From IMG/VR virus record IMGVR_UViG_2531839666_000016: a stretch of 36,379 bases of DNA. One strand, written 5' to 3'. Origin of the DNA: a virus (lineage: Duplodnaviria; Heunggongvirae; Uroviricota; Caudoviricetes). This document shows positions 3,005-27,869 of this stretch, piece after piece. How positions within the stretch are numbered: the first letter of the stretch is position 1; each line of letters opens with the position of its first letter. Made by a program: the position numbers and the translations under genes. The notes under the pieces are model-generated. The model made no database searches. It was not told the DNA's origin and saw nothing but the letters and a program-made list of their open reading frames with translations.

Positions 3005-4053
3005 GAAATCGTCCCCAGTACCGCCAGTTCGTTTTTCGCAATGGAGATATTGTCCACCGGTGCAAGCAACTGATGGCTGTATTCCCCGTTCGCACCGGAA
3101 ATCGCCTCACTGATACGCGATACCTTCAGTTCTCCCTGCGGATAACCATCACGCAGCAGGAACGAACGCAACTCCGCGGTAATGGCAGCCCGTATTTCTG
3201 GTGTGTCCGGCGTCACGCGGATATGAAAATCCACCGTATGTGCCACCGGCCTGAATACATACAAATCAGAGCCTGCCTCCGGGGCCAGTGGCCCGATATG
3301 TTGTCTTGCTGCCGTTTCCGTTGATTCTTCCGGAATGGGATTAATCAGGTCACTGCTGGCAATCATCACACCGACAGTTCCCGTTCCCATCCAGTGACGG
3401 TATGTCCATGCGCGGGTAATGCCGGGCACTTCTTTAGCCCAAACGACATAGTCCCCGTCAGCCCCGCCCTGCGGCGTCCAGTAATACCGCTCAATGACGC
3501 GGGCGCGCCACGTTTCCAGCTCTTCAGTATCAAATCCGCCTGTAATGGTGTCAGCCACACCGGAAGACGGCAGACCATTCACCGGCGTGACCAGGATTAA
3601 TGCCGTACCGTCGTCAGCGTTACCGACCGCACCTGCACTTGAGCAGGCGATCGGCACGCGCAGGACACCACCGGAGCTGGTTGCATCGTCAGTTGTCGTG
3701 TACTGAACCAGGTCATCGCGCTGAATAACACTCCCGGCGGTCACCTTCAGGCCATCGCTGACACCTTCCCAGCGCATATACCCGCTGGCAGACGTGGCCC
3801 CCTTGCGCGGACACCGTTTCATCGCAGCATGTCGCGCCAGCCAGGACTCATCGCACAGGTCAGGCAGCATGTTCATTGCCAGATAATCGATGTAACCGTA
3901 AACCGTATGCAGCGCCGCCGCATACACCTTTGCCCGCACGTCTTCATCCATGCGCCGGAGCGTGTCGCTGACGTCCAGCCTGGCGAATAAATCGTTACGG
4001 AGCATACTGATATTTTCTGCCAGCGTCGGGCGTTGAAATTCACTGTCCGCCAT
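2995..4053 (-). CDS. Baseplate J-like protein (Mu gp47 family)
   Basis: 352 aa; gene order within Mu-like baseplate cluster; overlapping start/stop with neighbours. Confidence 0.7.
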
Positions 4054-4468
4054 GCGTTATCGCACTCCACAGATCATCAAAAGAAATCATTACCGGTCCG
4101 TCACGACGCCAGAGGGTGATACTGTTACCCAGCTCATTAATCCCGGTGCGGCGGATATCCAGATCAATACGGGACACCACGCCGTCATCAATCATCCATT
4201 GCAGGCATTCGCGGATATATCCCCTTACCGTCTGCACCAGCTGATTGGTCAGTTTGCTGCGCTGAAGCAGCCACAGTCGGGAGCCGTAACGGTCATTCTG
4301 TACCGCAGGCCAAGTATCCCCCCACCATCCCATCGGGACGTCGGCATTGTCATCAGGTTCAGCCCGCCGCCAGGTGAACAGGGAAATCACCACGGCACGG
4401 GTCAGCGGATCCAGCGGTGCGCTGGCGCAGGTGCGTTTACCGTTCACCGTCAGCCACAGTTCCATCAT
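4040..4468 (-). CDS. Baseplate protein (Mu gp46-like)
   Basis: 142 aa ORF in conserved position between spike and J-like genes. Confidence 0.55.
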   Translation of the reverse strand: MMELWLTVNGKRTCASAPLDPLTRAVVISLFTWRRAEPDDNADVPMGWWGDTWPAVQNDRYGSRLWLLQRSKLTNQLVQTVRGYIRECLQWMIDDGVVSRIDLDIRRTGINELGNSITLWRRDGPVMISFDDLWSAITHGGQ

Positions 4469-5013
4469 GCCTCCATCGCTTTATCAGGTTTGTCGGTGTT
4501 ACTGCCCTGACCGTTCTCTCTGTGACGATGCCCGTTATAGGCAAGCCGCATCGCTGACATGGTGGTGCCGGTGGAGTCGCACAGGTCTTTCACCTGTCCG
4601 GTCACTTCCAGGTCCATTTCAAAACGAGCCTTAGGCGCATTGCGAAACGTGATTGTTTTACCTGCACCGTCCACCACGATCCCCTCCCGGGTCAGCGTCA
4701 CGGACTGCCCCTGATCGTCATAGACAGCCACCTCCCCCGTATGCAGCCCTTTCAGGCGGTAGCGCCGGTCCGACACCGTAACAACCACCGCATGAGAACG
4801 GTCGCCATCCGGAAACAACACCACCGCTTCCGCACCGCTGTTTGCCCTTGCGGTAAAACCGTAGGGTTCAAGATGTTCAACCCCGGCTTTGGGTTCACCG
4901 GCAATCAGGGACACATCCACGGTCTGACATTTCGTGGCGGCACTGATGCTTTTCACCACTGCCCGCCCAATCAGGCCGAGAAGTTGTCGCTGCATGGCTT
5001 CAATCGTCCTCAT
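4465..5013 (-). CDS. Baseplate assembly protein V / spike (Mu gp45-like)
   Basis: 182 aa; position and size fit the gp45/V spike family. Confidence 0.6.
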   Translation of the reverse strand: MRTIEAMQRQLLGLIGRAVVKSISAATKCQTVDVSLIAGEPKAGVEHLEPYGFTARANSGAEAVVLFPDGDRSHAVVVTVSDRRYRLKGLHTGEVAVYDDQGQSVTLTREGIVVDGAGKTITFRNAPKARFEMDLEVTGQVKDLCDSTGTTMSAMRLAYNGHRHRENGQGSNTDKPDKAMEA

Positions 5014-6092
5014 CAGAACGGGTCCTCCTGTACTCTGGCTTTTTTCTTTTTCCGCGCGCCGGGGTCTTCAGGTTCAGGCAGATAAGCATCAGGCGGGCCG
5101 ACACGGATTTCCGTCAGGGTGCCGTTCTGGTCCTGAGTAAACGTGACTTCCGAAACAAGCAGTTCGGTATTGTCAAAACCACAGACCGGATCAAAGACAA
5201 TCACCCGCTGGTTGGGTTGCCACAGCGTACCGTTACCCTGTCGCCAGCCCTGCACCACATAGGTGGTTTCATCCGTCCGCGCCGCCCGTTGCCGGGCTTC
5301 AAAGTCAGCACGCGCAATACAGCCTGCCCCCGTAGCCTGCCCTGTCTGCCTGATATACATCGGACGGTAACGGGCAATAAATGCGTCCTCTGTGCGGGCC
5401 CGCAGCGCGGTGGTGGTGGCCTCACCGAAATCATCGTCGTTTCCGGCACGCTGCCCCGCCACCTGGTAAACAGAAAACCGCTCCCGGATACTCTTCTCCG
5501 TATCGCAGGAAAGGATGTTTTCCCCAAGTACCAGCGCGGTATGTGCCCGCGTTGAGCCAATACCGCCAATCACCAGCCTGCCGTGCGGATCGTCGTAAGC
5601 CAGTGCCTGCTGCTGACCGAGTATTTTGTTGATTACCTCAATCACCGTTTCACCGTGATCAGGCTGGACATCAGGAATAACACCCGACGGCGCACCGCTG
5701 TTCACCACCTCAATGCCGAAAGGCGCAGCAAGCGCCTGCGCAATCTGTACCAGCGATCGTCCGTTAAACTGTGTCGGTTCGGCTGCACAGTCAATCAGGT
5801 CAGCGGTCAGACTGCGTCCGGCAATACCGGTGCTGACCGAACGGGCATCGTAACGAACGGGAGTCGCCTCCACCCAGCCGGTGATCACCCGCTCATCACC
5901 AATCAGCACTTCCACTTTTGAACCGTTTTTAATGCGCGGCTGAAGCGTGGTGATACCCTCATCTCCCGGCCACTGGCGGGTGATCTCCACACTGAAATCC
6001 CGCGCCAGCCGTTCAATACCGGCACCGATGCGCACCGATGTCCAGCCATTCCACTCCCGGCCATTTACCCGTAGCGTGACGTTATCGTTCAT
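5013..6092 (-). CDS. Baseplate hub / tail protein (Mu gp44, late-control-D-like)
   Basis: 359 aa; follows DNA-circulation gene, precedes spike; C-terminal lysine-rich tail. Confidence 0.6.
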   Translation of the reverse strand: MNDNVTLRVNGREWNGWTSVRIGAGIERLARDFSVEITRQWPGDEGITTLQPRIKNGSKVEVLIGDERVITGWVEATPVRYDARSVSTGIAGRSLTADLIDCAAEPTQFNGRSLVQIAQALAAPFGIEVVNSGAPSGVIPDVQPDHGETVIEVINKILGQQQALAYDDPHGRLVIGGIGSTRAHTALVLGENILSCDTEKSIRERFSVYQVAGQRAGNDDDFGEATTTALRARTEDAFIARYRPMYIRQTGQATGAGCIARADFEARQRAARTDETTYVVQGWRQGNGTLWQPNQRVIVFDPVCGFDNTELLVSEVTFTQDQNGTLTEIRVGPPDAYLPEPEDPGARKKKKARVQEDPF

Positions 6093-23038: not shown

Positions 23039-23218
23039 CTACTGTTCTTCTATTTTTTTACTGGAAATCAATCCACTGGTCATTTCATAACCGTTTGTGT
23101 GGCCACAGTAAGGGCAAATAATTGGCTCTTTATCCTTTCCTCCTGGATAGCCTCCACTGTGCTCCCAATAAATAAACTCTTTATTGCAACTTTCATTACT
23201 ACATCTTGTATTGCTCAT
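23039..23218 (-). CDS. Small Cys-rich (zinc-ribbon-like) protein, 59 aa, first ORF of the late transcript
   Basis: Hand-translated: MSNTRCSNESCNKEFIYWEHSGGYPGGKDKEPIICPYCGHTNGYEMTSGLISSKKIEEQ; GGGAG Shine-Dalgarno 7 nt upstream of ATG; below the 60-aa cutoff of the ORF track. Confidence 0.35.
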   Translation of the reverse strand: MSNTRCSNESCNKEFIYWEHSGGYPGGKDKEPIICPYCGHTNGYEMTSGLISSKKIEEQ

Positions 23219-23288
23219 TGCATCACTCCCTCAGTAAGTAAGGAAATAAATACATAGCATAACCAAATCATTATTCGAAATTTGAGCA

Positions 23289-23314
23289 CAAAAAAACCCG
23301 CTCGATGGCGGGTT
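23289..23314 (-). terminator. Candidate tR' (terminator of short pR' leader transcript)
   Basis: On minus strand: AACCCGC-loop-GCGGGTT followed by T7; about 100 nt downstream of Q stop. Confidence 0.5.
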
Positions 23315-24186: not shown

Positions 24187-25182
24187 TTACGCCAGTACGC
24201 CTATTGCCAGCGCACGATCGATAAAACGAAATATCAGCTCCAACTGGGAGCCATACATCTCTTCAAATGCCACGGTATCCGCATGCAGCTCGTCGTGATG
24301 CTTTCTGCACAAAGGCAACACAAAGAGGTCATGCGCTTTTGTACCCATTCCCCCCTGACCGTGGCCTATCAGGTGGTGGGGATCATCAGCAAGCTTTCCA
24401 CAACATGCACACGGCTGTGTCTTAACCCAGCGCGTGTACTTTTCATTAACCCAGCGGCGACGTTTTGGGCGTAACATAAAAGACTCCGGCGACTCCGGAT
24501 CCACTTTCAGCGCCAGCACCTTTTTCGCTTTATCCTGGATAATGCTGGTGGCAGGAACCGAAGGCACAAGGTCACTTTCCCGGGTGACAGACGGCACAAC
24601 AGGCTTCGGTAATCTCAGTGCCTTACGGGCTGCACTTTCCGGTAAGGCATCCGCCAGGTCATTACGAATCAGCCACCAGCACAGTTCCGGCATTGTCACA
24701 ACGTGACTATCATCAAAACCGAGATCCCGACGCACAACAGACAACACCCAACGGGCACAGTTATCCGTTGCCATTGATTCCAGCCGTTCCGTGAACTGAT
24801 CGCGCAGCTGGTTATCGCAGTGCCAGCAGAGACGGATTGCGCCCGGAGCGTGCCGCATTGTGGTCATGTTCTCGCTGTGCCAGTCGGAATGAGGCCACTG
24901 GCAGCCTTTTTCACGAAGTAACCAGCTTTCAAGACATTCCACCCCACCAGCACGACGGATCACTGCCTCATTGCGGAACACGGCCCGAACGGCAGGATCA
25001 TCCGCCAGCGGTTGTGATGCCGCGGGAACGGCACCACTGGCGAAAGATGAATAACGTTCCGGCTCAGGCTCCAGCAGGACACGCCCCTGCATAAACAGGG
25101 GCATCAGCTCTGAACCGGGCCTGAACAATACGATCCCCATACGCGGGGCAATTTCAGGGGTCAGTAGTGCTCTCACAGTCAC
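24187..25182 (-). CDS. DUF968-family protein with C-terminal HNH-like motif (nin region)
   Basis: 331 aa; C-terminal CACCGK...HHLIGHGQGG...CRKHHDELH. Confidence 0.55.
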   Translation of the reverse strand: MTVRALLTPEIAPRMGIVLFRPGSELMPLFMQGRVLLEPEPERYSSFASGAVPAASQPLADDPAVRAVFRNEAVIRRAGGVECLESWLLREKGCQWPHSDWHSENMTTMRHAPGAIRLCWHCDNQLRDQFTERLESMATDNCARWVLSVVRRDLGFDDSHVVTMPELCWWLIRNDLADALPESAARKALRLPKPVVPSVTRESDLVPSVPATSIIQDKAKKVLALKVDPESPESFMLRPKRRRWVNEKYTRWVKTQPCACCGKLADDPHHLIGHGQGGMGTKAHDLFVLPLCRKHHDELHADTVAFEEMYGSQLELIFRFIDRALAIGVLA

Positions 25183-26026: not shown

Positions 26027-26402
26027 CCGCCGTTTTCTCGTACTTACTGATAGTGATCTCGACCTTCCCTTCCGGGATAACCGGTCCCCACTCCACCAGC
26101 ATTCTTTTCACCAGACTGTCGTCTTCCCACACACCCGCGTGGGTCAGGGCGTCAAACAGCGCCTTGTTATAGTTGTCCAGATCGCGGATCCGGTTATCCG
26201 GAGGAAACAACACGATCTCCACTGAAGCAGGTGCCGACGTTGGTTTTGGCAGACGACGTAACTGCTCAACTATTGCGGCACACGCCGCGCTCTGGAATTT
26301 TCGCCCCGCCGCGCTTATCAGGCTCTTACCAGCAAACGCCCCTTTGTTGGGGTGTCGCCAGTACGTGTTCACGCTGGGCGGAAAAGGCAGAATCAGCTTC
26401 AT
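26013..26402 (-). CDS. rusA: RusA Holliday-junction resolvase
   Basis: 129 aa with LPFPPSVNTYWR…RDLDNYNKALFDALTHAGVWEDDSLV, matching the RusA signature. Confidence 0.85.
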   Translation of the reverse strand: MKLILPFPPSVNTYWRHPNKGAFAGKSLISAAGRKFQSAACAAIVEQLRRLPKPTSAPASVEIVLFPPDNRIRDLDNYNKALFDALTHAGVWEDDSLVKRMLVEWGPVIPEGKVEITISKYEKTAGAAA

Positions 26403-26725
26403 ACTTTCAGCTCCCTCTCATGTAACCAGTGGGCTGCACGCAGCCTGGCGTTTTCCTCACCGGCAAGCAGTGAGCGGATAATCCCGGCCGCCTCGCTGTC
26501 GTCGCCCTTCACCGCGGTATGAAGCGTTATCCCCCGGGCCACGCCACGCTTTATCGTGATGACGCCTTTTTTCTCCAGTGCGCGAAGATGCTCCACCGCT
26601 GCATTCACCGAACGGTATCCCAGCATGGTTGCCACCTCCTGATTGGTTGGCGGGAAACCACGTTCTTTCTGATAAGAAATCAGCATATCCAGCACCTGCT
26701 GCTGGCATTGAGTTAACGTCGTCAT
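26399..26725 (-). CDS. LexA N-terminal DNA-binding-domain homolog lacking the S24 peptidase domain
   Basis: 108 aa; by-eye alignment to E. coli LexA residues 1-65 (LT.RQQEV.D.I…G.PPT..E.A..LG.RS.NAA.EHL.AL..KGVI.I..G..RGI.L); no Ser/Lys autocleavage domain. Confidence 0.6.
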   Translation of the reverse strand: MTTLTQCQQQVLDMLISYQKERGFPPTNQEVATMLGYRSVNAAVEHLRALEKKGVITIKRGVARGITLHTAVKGDDSEAAGIIRSLLAGEENARLRAAHWLHERELKV

Positions 26726-27408
26726 GCCGCCATCTCCCTGACCAGTTTTTCCGCCTGCTGGCGAACCTGCGCCAGAAACGCCTCACCACATGCCTCAAGT
26801 TCATCGCGCCCGATGTAGCTGATTGCCGGTCCCTTCCAGGTCTTGTCGAAAACAGCAATAGCACCAGCGAAGAAAGCACCTGTCGGCACCTGCTTCTCGT
26901 CCTTCGGGATAAACCAGGCAGGCAGTTCAAAACCAATACGCCCGCGAATAAAAGCAATATGGTCCGCATCTTCCGGCCACCACACTTCACTGGTGGCAGC
27001 TTTGATCAGGAAAACATAGCGCCCGCCTTTATCACGCATGGCACTGGCATGTTTCATGATGTAACGCATGCCGGTGATGTATTGCCCCTCATGCTGACTG
27101 GCGCGGCTGTATGGGGGATTACCAAAGGCAGCACCTTTAAGCTCCGCAAGGCGTTCTGACCAGTCATGCGCCAGCGCGTTGTCTTCCGCCGTGTAATACG
27201 CGGCACATTTGGCGTTATCACCGTCAGTGAACAGATCCAGAACAAACGGGCCAAACAGGGTGTTAATTCCCCAGAAAATGTTGTCCGGCGTGCGCCACTG
27301 ATCGCCCACTTCCTTCAGTTCATGGGCTGGTTTGTTCCGCAGTTCCACCAGTGCCTGACAATATTTATTACTCATTAAGCCCCCACGTAATTCCCTGACA
27401 GATACCAC
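26722..27408 (-). CDS. Orphan N6-adenine DNA methyltransferase (phage Dam family)
   Basis: 228 aa with catalytic NPPY motif (GNPPYSRA); no adjacent restriction endonuclease. Confidence 0.75.
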   Translation of the reverse strand: MVSVRELRGGLMSNKYCQALVELRNKPAHELKEVGDQWRTPDNIFWGINTLFGPFVLDLFTDGDNAKCAAYYTAEDNALAHDWSERLAELKGAAFGNPPYSRASQHEGQYITGMRYIMKHASAMRDKGGRYVFLIKAATSEVWWPEDADHIAFIRGRIGFELPAWFIPKDEKQVPTGAFFAGAIAVFDKTWKGPAISYIGRDELEACGEAFLAQVRQQAEKLVREMAA

Positions 27409-27869
27409 TCTTCACCCGATGCAGCGCGCTTGCTGCTTTTCTGTAAGCACTGCTCACGACGCGCCAGAAAATTGTTTCGTTCTGGCTGGGAGTGGCTTTC
27501 ACGGAATGCCGCCATCCACACCGTTGCAGCACGACGGTATAAGCCCCTGGACTCCAGTTCTTCAGCCTGGCGGGTCAGGCACAAAATCACTCGGGGATCG
27601 TTAGTGCCGACATAGAAATTACGCACAGGTCTGGTTTCACGAACTGGTTGTGGTTCCGGCTCCTGCGCTCTCTCAGTCAGGCGCGGGAAATGTCTGCGTG
27701 TATCTCCTTCACAACGGTGAGCCACACGCCCACTCTGACGTAACTTGCTTGCTGACTGCAGAACGCGCTGCCGTGAGTAACCTGCAAAAGCATCCGCAAT
27801 GTCTCCGGAAGTACACCCCGGATGGGCTTCAATGAATTTCTGAACGTCATTCAAAAGACTCATGATCAC
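27375..27869 (-). CDS. Hypothetical regulator-like protein (C-terminal PerC-like motif), in the position normally held by a helicase loader
   Basis: 164 aa; C-terminal RGLYRRAATVWMAAF resembles the PerC-family motif as recalled; immediately downstream of O-like initiator. Confidence 0.35.
   Translation of the reverse strand: MIMSLLNDVQKFIEAHPGCTSGDIADAFAGYSRQRVLQSASKLRQSGRVAHRCEGDTRRHFPRLTERAQEPEPQPVRETRPVRNFYVGTNDPRVILCLTRQAEELESRGLYRRAATVWMAAFRESHSQPERNNFLARREQCLQKSSKRAASGEEWYLSGNYVGA

Follow-up and report, generated by a model that had tools for sequence, protein, structure and literature searches.

A phage-encoded LexA-type DNA-binding protein with a conserved C-terminal hairpin and no autocleavage domain

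The delayed-early (nin) region of an SfII/SfV-like prophage encodes a 108-aa protein in which a LexA-type winged-helix DNA-binding domain is joined to a predicted two-helix hairpin, without the S24 autocleavage domain of LexA. The prophage makes up the window, the whole stretch of 36,379 nucleotides analysed here. The protein belongs to the LexA_DNA_bind domain family (PF01726) and is not a LexA repressor proper (TIGR00498 / MEROPS S24); it is the uncharacterised enterobacterial counterpart of the phage-encoded truncated LexA homologues, among which the conserved C-terminal hairpin is its distinguishing trait. We tentatively propose, with somewhat less than even confidence, that it binds SOS-type operators without being sensitive to RecA, is produced from pR in lytic growth and dimerises through the hairpin. 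The domain assignment is already in public records and adds nothing to existing annotation; the value of the observation lies only in the function of the protein and in a conserved hairpin that would replace the dimerisation domain of LexA.

A LexA-type head on a family-specific helical tail

A Pfam profile search aligned residues 1–65 of the protein with the entire LexA_DNA_bind model (PF01726, positions 1–65 of 65) at 69 bits (E = 3e-19), against a gathering cut-off of 23.7 bits. Over residues 1–68, 35 of 68 positions are identical to E. coli LexA (51%, ungapped; BLASTP, E = 2e-21), and similarity ends at residue 68. The closest PDB sequences found by phmmer were the LexA domain 1lea and full LexA chains (E ~1e-15). 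An AlphaFold2 model, computed as a single chain from an input alignment of 18 family sequences, has a mean pLDDT of 83 and places helices at residues 6–22, 28–35 and 40–52 and wing strands at 56–58 and 66–68. When this predicted model was compared with the PDB by Foldseek, the leading matches were 3jso, 1lea and 1jhh (rmsd 0.9–1.2 Å over 67–70 columns), headed by the LexA–DNA complex 3jso_B with an rmsd of 0.9 Å over 68 columns at 50% identity. The likeness to the LexA winged helix over the first 65 residues, which the original prediction had drawn from alignment by eye, is thus borne out by a full-length PF01726 match, 51% identity and an rmsd of 0.9 Å, and fold prediction, the check proposed for it, returned the LexA fold with 3jso_B as the top match.

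The same prediction held that the protease is missing, and this also stands. Peptidase_S24 found no match anywhere in the 108-aa protein in the Pfam profile search, and the LexA equivalog model TIGR00498 scored 66.7 bits, below its cut-off of 110.95, with alignment over model positions 1–91 of 203 only. Since the stop codon overlaps the rusA start, the gene is not a frameshifted full-length lexA. Compared with E. coli LexA (1lea, 1jhh, 3jso), the phage protein shares the winged-helix fold, the residues S39, N41, A42, E45 and H46, and the wing R64-G65-I66; it differs in lacking the S24 protease/dimerisation domain, Ser119/Lys156 and the conserved Ala-Gly site, in carrying Val in place of Glu44, and in ending in a two-helix hairpin. 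The coordinates of these elements, together with the gene overlaps and the candidate operator discussed below, are collected in Table 1.

Table 1. Features of the LexA-like gene and its surroundings, in window coordinates.
Feature	Positions	Strand	Basis
Complete CDS, LexA-like protein, 108 aa, stop codon included	26399..26725	-	ORF list, sequence, PHROG 362
LexA-type winged helix-turn-helix, residues 1-68	26522..26725	-	Pfam PF01726, LexA identity, model
Recognition helix, residues 39-52 (SVNAAVEHLRALEK)	26570..26611	-	Translation, LexA alignment
Flexible linker, residues 69-74	26504..26521	-	Low pLDDT, variable in alignments
Family-specific two-helix hairpin, residues 75-103, putative dimerisation element	26417..26503	-	Model, conservation
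ATGA overlap, dam stop / LexA-like gene start	26722..26725	-	Sequence; dam ORF 26722-27408
ATGA overlap, LexA-like gene stop / rusA start	26399..26402	-	Sequence, ORF coordinates
Near-consensus SOS box inside cI linker codons, candidate operator	30269..30288	.	Matrix scan

Head and tail are separated by a linker in which pLDDT drops below 50 (residues 71–75) and which varies in family alignments. Beyond it, AlphaFold2 places two helices, residues 75–88 and 93–103, with pLDDT ~88–90. The tail pattern EA..IIRALLAGE..AR.RA..WL..R is kept in relatives down to 40–48% identity, and hairpin-bearing relatives are found in prophages of Cronobacter, Enterobacter, Leclercia, Kosakonia, Pantoea, Citrobacter and Salmonella. 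Foldseek matches were confined to the wHTH, with no PDB fold match for the tail. Being both confidently modelled and conserved at 40–50% identity, the hairpin is likely to be functional. The simplest reading of an isolated hairpin of ~30 residues on a flexible linker is an oligomerisation element; so read, it probably dimerises the protein and replaces the C-terminal dimerisation domain of LexA. Five relatives (P0128, P0147, P0151, P0172 and P0213) carry tandem LexA_DNA_bind pairs within one chain. Judged by their sequences, these relatives would solve the pairing otherwise, which fits a need for two heads.

A related arrangement is known from LexA itself, whose N-terminal cleavage fragment 1–84 likewise consists of the LexA head without the C-terminal domain. 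As reported by Little and by Neher and colleagues, this fragment is said to keep weak operator binding and to repress if spared by ClpXP. LexA 1–84 ends in a VAA degron, whereas the phage protein has no terminal VAA, adds the conserved hairpin and would be a stable gene product.

Operon context and distribution

The genes of the − strand run in the order cro, cII-like gene, replication gene, PerC-like gene, dam, LexA-like gene, rusA, KilA-N gene, DUF968/HNH-like gene and Q, and cI, which encodes an S24 domain, is divergent from this cro-to-Q operon. This gene order, from cro through Q, is the evidence that the earlier placement in the nin region was correct; the ORF boundaries given with it were exact, on the − strand with an ATG start and 108 codons for amino acids. 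Both ends of the LexA-like gene are ATGA overlaps, and the one with dam makes co-transcription and coupled translation probable. The 4-base overlap with rusA is also present in ~45% identical relatives from Enterobacter, Pantoea and mEp390. A promoter of its own was considered for the gene and ruled out, as a consensus scan of the − strand from pR to Q found no sigma-70 consensus promoter. Given this result and the translational coupling to dam and rusA, the LexA-like gene is, from its sequence context, most likely a delayed-early pR product. In this it would differ from LexA, which is expressed from an autoregulated SOS promoter.

More widely, the order LexA-like gene, rusA, an optional ANT/KilA-N/Rha (antirepressor-like) gene, DUF968 gene and Q recurs at only 45–48% identity, in relatives from Cronobacter, Enterobacter, Pantoea and mEp390. 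The operon also encodes a second putative regulator, placed two genes ahead of the LexA-like gene (27375–27869, − strand): it is a PerC-family homologue, named yfdN in RefSeq E. coli annotation, and PerC-like prophage proteins are annotated as transcriptional activators.

The gene is common. It is present in 2233 of 5426 complete E. coli genomes (41%), at up to four copies each, and a single cluster at 90% holds 2527 sequences. PGAP names it 'LexA family transcriptional regulator', and GenBank phage records use 'LexA DNA binding domain protein', 'LexA-like protein' and 'repressor, lexA family'. The whole protein (1–108) matches PHROG 362 over profile positions 1–106 of 106 (E = 2.8e-57); the name of that family, 'transcriptional repressor', is an annotation only. 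Annotated orthologues from SfV (orf42), SfII, SfIV, mEp460, cdtI and Stx2 phages are 93.5–97% identical at the protein level (45 of 50 orthologue records at 95–97%, two at 93.5–94.4%), and they too lie between dam and rusA. A survey of Stx phages includes the gene as pham 237, with no comment (PMC8136144). A literature search found no functional study of the protein family.

With tblastn against the phage collection (E ≤ 1e-5), matches came from phages of Enterobacterales only. Standalone LexA-domain proteins are common among predicted viral structures, in unrelated phages, and the head also occurs in one-chain fusions, as LexA_DNA_bind+DUF968 (P0156, P0316 and P0317) and LexA_DNA_bind+HNH_3 (P0200). 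The LexA head thus appears, from these sequences, to be reused as a portable DNA-binding module.

Candidate SOS operators and DNA specificity

The original prediction had also pointed to an SOS box inside cI. The box is present and operator-grade: scored with a matrix built from 18 E. coli boxes (PMC3009722), TACTGTATATAAAAACAGTA reaches 27.9 bits, compared with 18.4 bits for the best of 300 simulated windows, and the 20-mer is identical to the E. coli umuD and sbmC boxes (PMC3009722 Table 4). In the 92%-identical mEp460/Stx2a cI allele the box is kept with one central change, and nearby bases vary. A consensus scan of the relevant strand found no promoter at the box, and inspection by eye gave only weak ones, with 4/6 matches per hexamer. 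LexA bound at this position might form a roadblock or control an antisense or internal promoter. Judged by its sequence, the box could serve host LexA, and possibly the phage protein too, as an operator.

Other sites in the window are weaker. The second-best one, at 23059–23078 near the Q–late junction, scores 12.9 bits and is within chance, as 17% of simulated windows reach that value. A perfect CTGT-N8-ACAG at 31577–31592 was rejected as a LexA site: it scores below 6 bits with the matrix and is not credible.

Boxes at other positions were seen in several carriers of the gene. In SfV (L002, 12907–12926) and mEp460 (L001, 41021–41040), a DNA methyltransferase moron located between Q and the lysis genes contains a 23-bit SOS box that begins 8 nt into the gene; the window has no such methyltransferase. 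In mEp460, a dinI homologue additionally has two boxes upstream (23255–23274 and 23283–23302). Edwardsiella phage EPP-1 (L005) carries a 24.6-bit SOS box at 3231–3250 ahead of a Rha-like gene, which is immediately followed by a 71-aa LexA-domain-only gene (no hairpin), a DUF968 gene and a Q-like gene (genes 3312–5253). Its LexA-like gene therefore appears, from this arrangement, to be under host LexA control, and feedback would be possible if the Rha-like and LexA-domain genes were co-transcribed.

We then scanned 80 gene-carrying IMG/VR loci, with flanks of up to 10 kb on each side, for strong boxes. The cI box occurred in 22 loci and the methyltransferase-moron box in ~20, and 42 had no strong box; divergent relatives mostly had no SOS box within 5 kb. 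Among loci with the cI allele of the window, 56 of 61 carry the gene. All 61 share the replication gene as well, so the association of the gene with this allele reflects common descent of the early-region module. Co-occurrence with SOS boxes was accordingly discarded as functional evidence, given the 42 of 80 loci without a box and the shared descent behind the 56 of 61. In three of the 61 loci (L126, L134 and L166), dam abuts rusA and the LexA-like gene is precisely absent; their modules are otherwise 98–99% identical and represent natural deletion or insertion variants. That natural phages keep this cI box yet precisely lack the gene shows that the immunity region does not require it. Nor is the cI box linked to the gene in any specific way. 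If the protein does bind SOS boxes, its main targets would lie in the host genome rather than at a dedicated phage site.

In E. coli LexA the DNA-contacting residues are Ser39, Asn41, Ala42, Glu44 and Glu45 (PMC3091678, a published summary); the phage protein has S39, N41, A42, V44 and E45, of which four of the five are as in LexA. S39 and N41 are invariant family-wide, and position 44 is variable (V, T, F, A or L). V44 also occurs in bona fide LexA, in at least one case: a full-length protein encoded by a Halothiobacillaceae MAG, in which both the S24 domain and a VAAG site are present. By sequence, the recognition helix (S-x-N-A-A-x-E-H) clearly belongs to the gamma-proteobacterial LexA type, which makes CTGT half-sites and SOS-box-like operators the most likely targets.

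Proposed function and competing readings

We suggest that the protein may be a LexA descendant that acts as an accessory DNA-binding factor encoded in the delayed-early (nin) region. The hairpin would pair two subunits and thereby present two winged helices to a two-fold symmetric site. With no catalytic Ser/Lys domain, the protein would not be triggered by RecA filaments to inactivate itself. Its synthesis from pR would follow infection or induction, just as host LexA is destroyed, so that LexA operators could be re-occupied: those of host SOS genes, of LexA-controlled morons and of rival elements, and also the cI-internal box of this phage. The operator-grade box in this phage, and those at the methyltransferase moron and dinI in other carriers, are sequence features that speak for such SOS-box binding.

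A different target is suggested by the only characterised phage-encoded truncated LexA homologue, gp6 of the Bacillus thuringiensis tectivirus GIL01, and this precedent argues for caution on specificity. Although 44% identical to the LexA domain of its host, gp6 recognises a palindrome, GaCACAnnTGTGaC, that does not resemble the host LexA box, and it activates the late promoter P3 (PMC6182141). It is made early in the lytic programme and is uncleavable (PMC6182141). The two proteins differ in that gp6 ends soon after the wing, the extra hairpin of 35–40 residues not being described for it, and in their origin, a Gram-positive tectivirus in one case and a lambdoid prophage in the other. No relatedness beyond the Pfam domain was seen, gp6 not being among the tblastn matches in the phage collection at E ≤ 1e-5.

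By analogy with gp6, the protein might be a phage-specific transcription factor whose specificity has drifted and which tunes phage nin or late transcription, an alternative that we regard as somewhat less likely. Four observations favour it, and the first three also count against SOS-box binding. The gp6 precedent shows a change of specificity, with activation rather than repression; Glu44 of LexA is replaced, at a position that varies in the family; most carriers have no SOS box near the gene, so that no phage-borne box travels with it (42 of 80 loci without one); and standalone LexA-domain proteins are widespread in unrelated phages. Also against SOS-box binding, a dimer held together by another scaffold could depart from the 8-bp spacing of LexA. 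Against drift, the recognition helix (SxNAAxEH) is much closer to that of enterobacterial LexA than a new specificity predicts. The window also offered no alternative site: CTGT/ACAG half-sites at other spacings, counted as inverted, everted and direct repeats with spacers of 0–20 bp (63 tests against simulated sequence), were not enriched, the excesses above 3 sd being scattered, inside structural genes and compatible with 63 tests. No candidate for a late-promoter site of the gp6 type was found in the window, and no conserved candidate site emerged.

It is considerably less probable that the protein is not a transcription regulator at all but serves the RusA resolvase, the DUF968 HNH-like protein or both as a partner for DNA binding or targeting. 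The LexA-like/rusA/DUF968/Q order is indeed kept at 45–48% identity, LexA_DNA_bind is fused in a single chain to DUF968 (three clusters) and to HNH_3, and EPP-1 and a Klebsiella phage have the gene beside DUF968 with no rusA between. Yet lambdoid nin gene order is conserved whatever the function, and RusA and DUF968 are both widespread without a LexA-like gene. The fusions are rare, 3 among the best 120 DUF968 matches, and the same list contains Dam+DUF968, KilA-N+DUF968 and replication-protein HTH+DUF968 chains that look like deletion products. The LexA_DNA_bind+DUF968 fusions were therefore set aside as a Rosetta stone, being real but rare and found alongside such artefacts of neighbour-gene fusion. 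The DUF968 neighbour in the window (24187–25182, − strand) is a protein of 331 aa whose DUF968/HNHc_6 match is confined to residues 162–328; its first 160 residues have no family match, and it is this place that the LexA head takes in the rare fusions.

Very improbable is a role at the protein level, as a decoy or inhibitor of RecA filaments or of the LexA, UmuD or cI clefts through LLAG (residues 86–89), or as a substrate cut in trans: although the LexA equivalog HMM aligns positions 1–91, beyond the DNA-binding domain, and MAFFT repeatedly sets IIRSLLAG under LexA (V/I)G(R/Q)VAAG, the similarity found by BLASTP does not extend past residue 68, the model makes the segment helical, unlike the strand-loop of LexA, and the A88-G89 pair, which lies in the modelled helix, is not conserved among more distant family members. 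On the same three grounds, LLAG was rejected as a vestigial cleavage site.

Should the favoured reading hold and SOS boxes be bound, this very common prophage gene would limit or end the SOS response of induced cells, with consequences for mutagenesis, for the induction of Shiga-toxin phages, for the release of colicins and for competition between co-resident prophages; the gene is present in several Stx2 phages. A stronger form, which we consider doubtful, is a RecA-proof LexA surrogate that, upon infection or prophage induction, shuts the host SOS regulon down again together with everything else under LexA control in the cell. The elements silenced would then include rival prophages with LexA-controlled antirepressors, colicins, SOS-induced toxins and defences, and the phage's own box inside cI. 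As 41% of complete E. coli genomes carry the gene, it would represent a widespread unrecognised modifier of SOS output and prophage competition. If another target is bound, the protein would be one more phage-specific regulator. Interference between prophages has been described for one carrier of the gene, phi1720a-02, which interferes with co-resident prophages; its authors credit Cro, and Cro alone suffices for the effect of phi1720a-02 on phiNP (bioRxiv 10.1101/2025.01.01.630987).
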